Shown here piece by piece: positions 34,213-34,471 of a stretch of DNA of 58,857 bases. This DNA comes from an uncultured Verrucomicrobiae bacterium (GTDB lineage Bacteria; Chlamydiota; Chlamydiia; Chlamydiales; Rhabdochlamydiaceae): contig CAWEXY010000026.1 in assembly GCA_963813135.1 (NCBI GenBank), forward strand, positions 1 through 58,857, read 5' to 3'. A program made the translations under genes and the position numbers. Within the stretch, counting starts at the first letter, position 1, and the number at the start of each line of letters is the position of its first letter. The notes under the pieces are model-generated. The model was not told where the DNA came from. It saw nothing but the letters and a program-made list of their open reading frames with translations, and ran no database searches.

Positions 34213-34471
34213 GAGACTTGAGTAAGCCACTAAATGTGGCTTACGTATGGTACTCGAAGTGAAGCTGTCTTGACAGCGAACCGGCTTTCGGGGCGGTCCA
34301 GCCGCCAGAAAGGAGTCCATCAAGTCTCAAATTTTTTGTTCTCGAAAAAATTTCGAGACTTGAGTAAGCCACTAAACGTGGCTTACGTATGGAACTCGAA
34401 GTGAAGCTGCCTTGGCAGCGAACCGGCTTTCGGGGCGGTCCAGCCGCCAGAAAGGAGTCCACCCAAGTCTC
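34213..34471 (+). repeat. Two tandem ~116-nt tRNA-Lys-linked structured repeats (34213-34328 and 34355-34471)
   Basis: Direct repeats with period 142; each closed by GAGACTTG/CAAGTCTC and ending like the tRNA-Lys 3' end; three internal hairpins. Confidence 0.92.

Follow-up and report, generated by a model that had tools for sequence, protein, structure and literature searches.

Folded modules templated on tRNA 3' ends in chlamydiae, traced from a tandem repeat behind a tRNA-Lys gene

The tRNA-Lys repeat and its family

What are two strongly folded tandem repeats doing directly behind a bacterial tRNA gene, when the ends of each repeat reproduce the end of that tRNA and its complement? The question is raised by a 58,857-nucleotide (nt) stretch of contig CAWEXY010000026.1 (assembly GCA_963813135.1; hereafter the window) from an uncultured bacterium placed in the Rhabdochlamydiaceae, in which two units of 117 nt each follow a tRNA-Lys gene and its terminator-like hairpin (Table 1). 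We found that this repeat is not a local oddity and is part of a chlamydial family of folded modules whose ends are templated on the tRNA behind which they lie. The modules are about 100-130 nt long, lie on the tRNA-sense strand and usually stand behind a first terminator or A/T palindrome.

At the window locus the template of the unit arms is the last 17 nt of tRNA-Lys, GAGTCCATCAAGTCTCA (34156-34172, tRNA positions 57-73); CCA is not encoded in the gene. Both units open with GAGACTTGA, continue with the hairpin hp1 (GTAAGCCAC-loop-GTGGCTTAC) and then read TGG[T/A]ACTC. Unit 1 starts 40 nt behind tRNA-Lys, and an 18-bp perfect palindrome detected by the inverted-repeat search (34163-34180 with 34204-34221), which has the terminator-like hairpin at its tip, links the tRNA's 3' end to the 5' arm of the unit. 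The spacer between the units forms, together with its flanking arms, another inverted repeat of 18 nt (34320-34337 with 34346-34363, 89% complementary). Tandem Repeats Finder reported positions 34213-34471 as 1.8 copies of a period of 142 with 94% matches, and a direct-repeat search returned 107 nt at 96% identity with a spacing of 142; the copies differ at ~5% of positions. An initial annotation made from the letters of this stretch had described tandem units after the tRNA-Lys terminator, their ends, the split complement, the hairpins and the palindromic spacer between the units, as well as a double change from T-A to C-G between the two copies of hairpin P4, and all of these statements about the sequence proved correct.

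The source genome (G000; 1.83 Mb in 31 contigs, 82% complete) contains 32 tRNAs called by ARAGORN. When unit 1 was compared with it by BLAST, three further loci matched in the core and not in the ends, and at each of the three the unit ends in the last 17 nt of the locus's own upstream tRNA. A copy of the last 17 nt with at most three mismatches lies within 700 nt downstream of eight of the 32 tRNAs (Lys, Leu-CAA, Leu-UAG, Ser-UGA, Ser-GCU, Ser-GGA, Pro-CGG with three copies, and Gly-GCC) and upstream of none; at Leu-CAA, Leu-UAG, Ser-UGA, Ser-GCU, Ser-GGA and Pro-CGG the tail copies are exact or have one mismatch. Seven of these eight, all but Gly-GCC, are units of the family, and there are two additional units, one behind the 3' half of a tRNA-Phe and one behind a 3' fragment of a tRNA-Tyr. 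The initial annotation had predicted that units beside other tRNAs would match their own tRNA, which was true for Leu-CAA, Leu-UAG, Ser-UGA, Ser-GCU, Pro-CGG, Phe and Tyr, and for the transfer-messenger RNA (tmRNA) in relatives. It had also proposed a search for the core genome-wide and in related genomes. Two covariance models were used, R1 built from five units and R2 from 69 units. R1 found 12 copies in the source genome, with one to three units per locus; all 12 lie at tRNA ends or tRNA 3' fragments, none away from tRNA ends. An exact inverted copy of the tRNA end (at least 8 nt, within 90 nt) occurs at four of the 32 tRNAs, and all four carry units. The inverted copy is therefore part of the unit and not a general habit of terminators in this genome.

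The copy behind tRNA-Gly(GCC) is of another kind. It is an exact 31-nt copy of the tRNA 3' end, from the variable loop to the end, lying 214 nt downstream (L012, G000:C20:14700-15500, minus strand), and is preceded by a look-alike of the anticodon arm of that tRNA, so that the locus is in effect a copy of the 3' two-thirds of tRNA-Gly with an insert of ~150 nt. It is without hp1 and the family core, and R2 gives no match. A further peculiarity concerns tRNA-Phe, which has an intact 3' half and a replaced or degenerate 5' half upstream of units in three genera (L003/L013, G000:C21, ~199.75 kb; L041 in G005; L022 in G018). No intact tRNA-Phe was called by ARAGORN in the source genome, at its 82% completeness.

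Beyond the source genome, R1 matched in 20 of 61 related genomes, including 18 out of 36 genera in the same family and 1 of 24 other families in the order. R2 matched in 21 of 150 genomes sampled across the phylum (13 of 22 in family f1, 6 of 19 in f5 and 1 of 3 in f15), with none in 26 f28 genomes of 1.0-1.2 Mb nor in f27, f30 and f31. A pattern scan of ~186,000 species genomes yielded at least 21 true loci after checking 80 of at least 119 stretches with the model. Among the matches listed, the true loci belong to records titled Chlamydiae, Parachlamydiales, Rhabdochlamydia(ceae) or Simkaniaceae, to Verrucomicrobia-labelled metagenome-assembled genomes placed in the source genome's own family, or to 'uncultured bacterium' records; the non-chlamydial remainder of the stretches, again among the matches listed, are chance pattern matches. 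Four pattern matches in viral contigs were not confirmed by the model. Within the genomes searched the family is confined to a few (four) chlamydial families, where more than 100 homologous units occur across dozens of independent assemblies. For 51 of 69 units in relatives ARAGORN called a tRNA or tmRNA upstream on the same strand, and most of the remaining units follow tRNA 3' fragments or start a contig. The distance behind the tRNA or tmRNA gene is almost always 10-45 nt. The genes involved are those for tRNA-Phe, Lys, Leu (four anticodons), Ser (three), Met, Pro, Tyr and Arg, together with tmRNA, and arrays reach seven units (G032). Literature searches aimed at an earlier account of the family in chlamydiae, or at tRNA-targeted small repeats, brought up none.

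Anatomy and conservation of the fold

In the 5' to 3' direction a unit is built from a 5' arm, hp1, the 5' strand of helix P3, a three-way junction and a 3' arm. The 5' arm complements tRNA nt 64/65-72/73 and the P3 5' strand complements nt 57-63/64, while the 3' arm copies nt 57-73. The tRNA-end complement is split by hp1, a 9-bp stem of conserved sequence (RRAGCCAA...TTGGCTYY), and the three-way junction has the form GAAGUGAAGC-[P4]-GCGAACCGGC-[P5]. The constant scaffold is made up of hp1 and the junction with its near-invariant unpaired GAA / GA / GA / CGG; what varies from locus to locus is the direct copy of the unit's own tRNA tail, beginning at nt 57, together with the complement of nt 57-73. 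At the loci inspected by eye, identity to the tRNA always starts at nt 57, with an edge between nt 56 and 57 at which the unit has GG and the tRNA TTC. A long form (~116-132 nt) and a short form (~98-101 nt) differ in P5, and further subfamilies are a form with a long P4 and an atypical Ser-GGA unit without hp1. Neither ARAGORN nor the Rfam tRNA model called the window units as tRNA. They are without a T-loop hairpin, and the copied T-loop bases of tRNA-Lys lie paired within P3. Behind a tRNA-Leu(UAG) of another genome we observed a core-less unit (L178, G025:C23:24600-26700) in which the 5' arm and hp1 are present and two bases connect the strands of P3, without junction, P4 or P5.

The fold is stable at the locus itself and maintained across the family. 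Unit 1 folds with -55.2 kcal/mol (z = -6.15) and unit 2 with -53.6 kcal/mol (z = -5.02), and none of 200 shuffles was as stable as either unit. In an alignment of 59 distinct units, 91.1% of cells are in standard pairs, versus 65.5% in shuffles (0 of 500 reaching the observed value) and 32-49% when partners were slid, and 43 of 43 model pairs have changes on both sides; because the units had been fitted to the model for this alignment and are related copies, these figures lean towards structure. A MAFFT alignment of five sequences showed compensatory change in 21 of 43 pairs. The most conserved columns are the unpaired junction bases (GAA 97-98%, GA 93%, CGG 92-95%), and the single bases flanking hp1 are conserved at 95-97%. 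The locus was also compared with that of a sister species (G001). The tRNA-Glu and tRNA-Lys genes of the two species are identical and both units are kept in each, the copies in the sister species being more diverged from each other than those in the source genome. Paired changes, among them a paired deletion in hp1, distinguish the Lys units of the two species, and the intergenic DNA downstream of them is barely alignable. The suggestion of the initial annotation that the structure is under selection agrees with these data, in that the fold is maintained, compensatory changes extend to every model pair, and paired changes separate the two species.

The arms behave differently in their inner and outer parts. 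In single or first units of relatives the inner tail copy (nt 57-64, helix P3) is kept, and the outer tail copy (nt 65-73) is often abruptly replaced by unrelated, frequently T-rich sequence. A crude ungapped parse of 44 of 53 loci gives rough counts, having put the T-loop in the wrong place at two Lys loci (L033 and L034); it found at most one mismatch in 24 of 44 first units for the 5' arm, in 27 for the P3 5' strand, in 25 for the P3 3' strand and in 13 for the unit's own outer 3' arm. By the same rough count, that outer arm has at least four mismatches to the tRNA in 29 of 44 units, and the 5' arm is complementary to the upstream tRNA end in 24 of 44. Since the outer 3' arm is so often lost in first units, a full closing helix is typical of units inside arrays and not of the whole family. 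The proposal that the units mimic a tRNA acceptor stem needs correction on this point: the full closing helix is present in the window, but the outer helix is not the conserved part of the family.

The features of the locus are collected in Table 1. An Rfam scan of window positions 33000-35500 (E up to 10) returned only tRNAs and chance-level matches such as SNORA3 (19.1 bits, cut-off 51), and a promoter scan found no sigma-70-like site near the units. Another tandem repeat of the window lies at 21541-21969 (216 nt, 2.0 copies, 93% matches).

Table 1. Features of the tRNA-Lys locus, in window coordinates
Feature	Position	Strand	Basis or remark
tRNA-Glu(UUC), first of tRNA gene pair	34014..34090	+	ARAGORN; Rfam tRNA 54.5 bits
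tRNA-Lys(UUU)	34100..34172	+	Rfam tRNA 73.1 bits; ARAGORN 34099-34173
First terminator-like hairpin and T-run, between tRNA-Lys and unit 1	34178..34206	+	terminator scan: stem 34178-34200, 9 pairs
Unit 1, 117 nt	34213..34329	+	sequence, folding, repeat search; covariance models R1 116 bits, R2 98.5 bits
Unit 1 5' arm	34213-34221	+	complement of tRNA-Lys nt 64-72
Unit 1 hairpin hp1	34222-34244	+	
Unit 1 P3 5' strand	34248-34255	+	complement of tRNA-Lys nt 57-63, one bulge
Unit 1 conserved junction GAAGTGAA	34256-34263	+	
Unit 1 P4, GCTGTC-TT-GACAGC	34264-34277	+	
Unit 1 junction GAACCGG	34278-34284	+	
Unit 1 P5, CTTTC..GGCGG..CCGCC..GAAAG hairpin	34285-34312	+	
Unit 1 3' arm	34313-34329	+	17/17 nt copy of tRNA-Lys nt 57-73 (repeat search)
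A/T-rich palindromic inter-unit spacer	34330..34354	+	inverted-repeat search
Unit 2, 117 nt, anatomy as unit 1	34355..34471	+	R1 115.5 bits, R2 94.1 bits
Unit 2 hp1	34364-34386	+	
Unit 2 P4, GCTGCC-TT-GGCAGC	34406-34419	+	T-A to C-G double change versus unit 1
Unit 2 3' arm GAGTCCACCCAAGTCTC	34455-34471	+	slightly altered copy of tRNA-Lys end
Seven-T run directly after unit 2 closing helix	34472..34478	+	sequence; not called by terminator scan; could be a second terminator tail

Movement between loci, strand and competing explanations

Arrays differ in register among lineages, ending with a complete unit, a core-cut unit or a bare 5' arm and hp1; such varied registers fit slippage between repeated segments better than site-specific insertion. 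With the arms excluded, mean core identity is 0.78 within arrays, 0.54 for the same tRNA type, 0.55 within the same genome and 0.52 in the background, and the nearest neighbours of a core are often at other tRNAs in other genera, as illustrated by a Phe unit (G012) and a Tyr unit (G024) with 83% core identity. Core similarity thus tracks neither tRNA type nor genome, which indicates that the scaffold has moved between tRNA loci and taken on new arms each time. A search of the 82% complete source genome for enzymes gave one Phage_integrase match away from the units (C9:103485-103982) and no match to Y1_Tnp or RVT_1. Among 41 genomes of the family, integrase counts and the presence of units were not linked; seven relatives that bear units have just two tyrosine recombinases, and unit-free relatives have up to seven.

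Three unusual arrangements deserve mention. In G175 (genus g32) a genuine miniature inverted-repeat transposable element (MITE) of ~340 bp, with 21-bp terminal inverted repeats beginning TATACCGGAAATGATTCAAAA and at least nine dispersed sites (L206, L208-L213, L215 and L217) that are not beside tRNA genes, has captured the family core together with a tail like that of tRNA-Leu and the tail's complement, which hp1 splits. In G033 the 5' half of a tRNA-Lys is fused directly to a unit 3' end and followed by four degenerate tandem units with a period of 106 nt (L185, G033:C2:484500-486900), which looks like a recombination that destroyed that copy of tRNA-Lys. A 7.5-kb contig of G027 carries two inverted unit-like copies, with hp1 and core, on a different flank and with no tRNA nearby (L184, G027:C54:4000-7500).

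The loops of the units distinguish the two strands. On stems of at least 4 bp, 18 C-GNA-G triloops were counted for the tRNA-sense strand and one for the opposite strand, so the tRNA-sense strand is the folded one. For the same reason an antisense-strand RNA using a bidirectional terminator was put aside. Inspection by eye did not support a hammerhead-like or other small-ribozyme core, and none had an Rfam match. The reading that we favour, though tentatively, is that the unit is a sense-strand trailer RNA, made by read-through of the terminator, released by tRNA 3'-end processing enzymes and possibly serving as a second terminator too. Transcripts that pass the first terminator would carry the module as a 3' trailer, and the endonucleases that mature the tRNA 3' end would also cut at each copied tail, because the module ends like a tRNA, in a helix with the complement and with an A/U-rich tract after it. 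Cutting would release the tRNA and unit-length RNAs, and the closing helix followed by the U-run would give a second stop. Arrays may form and contract through slipped or unequal recombination among the repeated tRNA ends, and the arms may stay matched to the tRNA through hairpin-templated copying.

Several observations weigh against a trailer RNA. In the tRNA-independent helices (hp1, P4 and P5), G-U pairs number 18 and A-C oppositions 13 among ~1,190 Watson-Crick cells. Such a small excess of G-U is unusual for an RNA made from one strand and fits pairing at the DNA level. GNRA loops make up 1 of 78 tetraloops. Most structured RNAs differ in both respects, which keeps a single-stranded-DNA reading alive. 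The terminator-like hairpin stands between tRNA-Lys and unit 1, and the next downstream gene is convergent at two of nine loci, on which ground a leader of the downstream gene was rejected. The pair counts, as said, lean towards structure, and the route by which the scaffold moved between tRNA loci is left unexplained by an RNA. Words of the locus were present in 21 public runs (best share 0.20), four of which were examined, and their coverage is limited to the tRNAs and a few DNA contigs. The RNA contigs cover 34013-34165 only, are tRNA-like and come from other organisms with 90-95% likeness, and one RNA run gave no contig at the locus; these data speak neither for nor against transcription.

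The next reading in order of probability, although we consider it unlikely, is a single-stranded-DNA element in which the tRNA-sense strand folds (for example on the lagging-strand template), its arms mimic the 3' duplex of the tRNA gene, and structure-guided recombination or template switching takes place between tRNA loci, with any RNA incidental and a logic like that of attC or CTX-type sites. The stems are almost purely Watson-Crick, with no preference for G-U over A-C, as fits such an element, and the strand-specific triloops suit it well, since C-GNA-G-type loops make unusually stable DNA mini-hairpins. Its mobility would account for the same core types at different tRNAs in different genera, as in the Phe and Tyr units above, and it is consistent with the arrays of up to seven units, with targets that include tmRNA and the classic island-prone tRNAs, and with the edge of identity between nt 56 and 57 in loci read by eye. 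However, the enzyme census gives it neither a candidate in the 82% complete source genome nor an excess of tyrosine recombinases in carriers, none of the four pattern matches in viral contigs was real, and no mechanism is known for rewriting both arms to a new tRNA. Moreover, near-invariant unpaired junction bases and conservation in place between species suggest function over transit. The same bases tell against passive palindromic DNA, an improbable account in which a functionless hairpin module came to lie behind tRNAs, and template switching across hairpins during replication (quasipalindrome correction) reproduced the tRNA end both inverted and inverted back and keeps the stems perfect, with apparent covariation as a by-product. 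This would explain, free of any enzyme, the inverted and direct tail copies, stems of Watson-Crick pairs only, one-step paired changes and G-U pairs about as rare as A-C, and both the varied array registers, which fit slippage, and the existence of a core-less unit with arms and hp1 only (L178) sit well with it. Conservation of unpaired junction bases at 92-98% in several bacterial families is beyond such a process, as is the strand bias of the loop motifs, and neutral DNA would not remain alignable between genera when the flanking intergenic DNA can no longer be aligned even inside one genus.

Integrated islands are typically recognised by direct repeats of tRNA 3' ends, and the units could on that ground be taken for attL/attR scars of integrase-mediated, possibly tandem, insertions; this is very unlikely and has been largely refuted. 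True islands do exist at these tRNAs. In the source genome ~5.6 kb separate the intact tRNA-Tyr (C10:2274-2358) from a 3' fragment of tRNA-Tyr with terminator and unit still attached (L170, G000:C10:2000-8400), with open reading frames that match HNH_3, DUF3298, an alpha/beta hydrolase, a YhcG PDDEXK nuclease and a short-chain dehydrogenase and no integrase; since the Tyr unit of the sister species follows an intact tRNA-Tyr, this insertion is specific to the source genome. In G032 an AbiEi/AbiEii pair (type IV toxin-antitoxin) is flanked by an intact tRNA-Phe that has units and by a tRNA-Phe 3' fragment behind which the seven-unit array follows (L171, G032:C1:568000-573000). These real islands cross over near the anticodon arm and merely displace a tRNA fragment together with its unit, whereas the inserts in question are of 100-130 nt without a gene or open reading frame, their identity from nt 57 omits T-loop nt 54-56, and their conserved fold and complement of the tRNA end are not created by integration; many carriers, as noted, have only two tyrosine recombinases. 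That the repeat is an assembly artefact or a chance duplication in the window only has a negligible chance of being right. Although the assembly is a 31-contig draft and no public-run contig spans the junction of units 1 and 2, the two copies differ at ~5% and the sister species has the same two-unit locus, which makes an artefact unlikely, and the homologous units in independent assemblies point the same way. A public DNA run (X1) gave two identical 151-nt contigs, of which one matches the window without difference over 34369-34519.

Known counterparts and meaning of the family

The closest parallel is found in the tRNA-linked repeats (TLRs) of E. coli, among them the RtT/rttR repeats of the tyrT-tyrV operon. 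In PMC8144298, 22 TLRs are described at ten loci, with one to five per locus and 3' ends in which 18-19 bp are identical to the upstream tRNA or rRNA; known since 1978, they are there said to be still without an accepted function. PMC8144298 also reports that rrA, rrB and rrF, behind 5S rRNA, lie between two terminators and give read-through products that are processed and bind Hfq and CsrA in vitro, and that rtT repeats also give an RNA product, transcribed together with the upstream gene and processed. For the TLR studies of Egan and Landy 1978, Rudd 1999, and Bosl and Kersten 1991/1994 we rely on PMC8144298 and bioRxiv 10.1101/2024.07.17.603846.

Like the TLRs, which stand behind tRNA or rRNA genes, the chlamydial units lie directly downstream of tRNA or tmRNA on the same strand, occur as one to a few tandem copies per locus (one to three in the source genome, up to seven in G032) and copy the upstream tRNA end in their 3' arm. 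The copy is 17 nt long and not 18-19 because CCA is not encoded, so that the same T-loop position is reached. As read at the tyrT-tyrV locus of K-12, every RtT unit opens with a complement to the tail of tRNA-Tyr, closes with the tail itself and has several GC-rich hairpins between, and the Rfam consensus of RtT (RF00391) draws the same closing helix. RtT also shares the sense-strand C-GNA-G triloops (6 versus 0 in E. coli) and a GATGAGAAG-type junction that recurs in chlamydial Pro and Ser-UGA units. As RtT repeats yield an RNA, their sharing of this loop habit counts against the single-stranded-DNA reading. The chlamydial units differ in adding hp1, which splits the 5' strand, in a complement that extends as far as the discriminator base and continues into a palindrome formed with the terminator, and in their three-way junction. 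The models do not cross over: the RtT model gave no match in window positions 33000-35500 (E up to 10) and at best 24.2 bits in the source genome, at the atypical Ser-GGA unit (cut-off 45), although it scored 133-137 bits four times on the E. coli locus as a control, and R2 gave no match at the E. coli tyrT locus. In anatomy the chlamydial units are a counterpart of E. coli TLR/RtT, with no detectable sequence-family link. No Rfam family matches the repeat, but its kind is not wholly new, as the E. coli TLRs share the defining anatomy.

Other known systems resemble the units in single respects. The 3' external transcribed spacer RNA 3'ETS-leuZ of E. coli is, according to PMC8144298, a functional RNA from a tRNA trailer released by processing. 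As described there it is carried in the trailer of a tRNA transcript, as is proposed for the chlamydial RNA, but it is a non-repeated RNA with neither a template in the tRNA end nor the fold of the chlamydial units. Duplications of the attL/attR type at islands likewise repeat the 3' part of a tRNA directly and prefer the same tRNAs and tmRNA; the chlamydial units have no cargo and no integrase and add an inverted copy, a conserved fold and identity from nt 57. Small non-autonomous palindromic repeats include REP/BIME, Correia-type MITEs and the Rickettsia palindromic elements. The units resemble them in being short, multi-copy, hairpin-forming, intergenic and present in reduced genomes. Unlike MITE or REP sequences, they have ends that vary by locus as the neighbouring tRNA dictates, their source-genome copies are all at tRNA ends, and searches with Y1_Tnp and RVT_1 found no partner transposase in the source genome. 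Integron attC and CTX-phage attP are recombination sites folded from a single strand, branched imperfect hairpins of ~60-150 nt whose stem imitates a duplex target. The chlamydial units are also branched hairpins in arrays; unlike those sites, they are without a conserved core site or linked integrase, and the target that they imitate changes with the tRNA.

At present the units are unannotated in chlamydial genomes, where they can break assemblies at tRNA loci and be mistaken for the attachment-site scars of islands. For the long-standing TLR puzzle they supply a far better data set, with more than 100 copies in dozens of genomes at no fewer than ten tRNAs as well as tmRNA, in which arms that change with the tRNA can be seen against a fixed scaffold with invariant junction bases and strong covariation. 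It is a doubtful but conceivable idea that the chlamydial units and E. coli TLR/RtT belong to one general class of programmable module, in which a constant scaffold acquires both strands of the neighbouring tRNA's last ~17 nt, by hairpin-templated copying or base-pair-guided recombination, and uses this address either to pass from one tRNA gene to another or to hijack the processing of tRNA 3' ends. If true, this would be a self-retargeting element or RNA for which no dedicated enzyme is yet known. The family poses the question of whether its units are RNAs excised by the enzymes of tRNA processing or folded DNA strands that target tRNA genes, and, because a complement and a conserved fold accompany the copied tRNA end, it turns a curiosity into a testable design.

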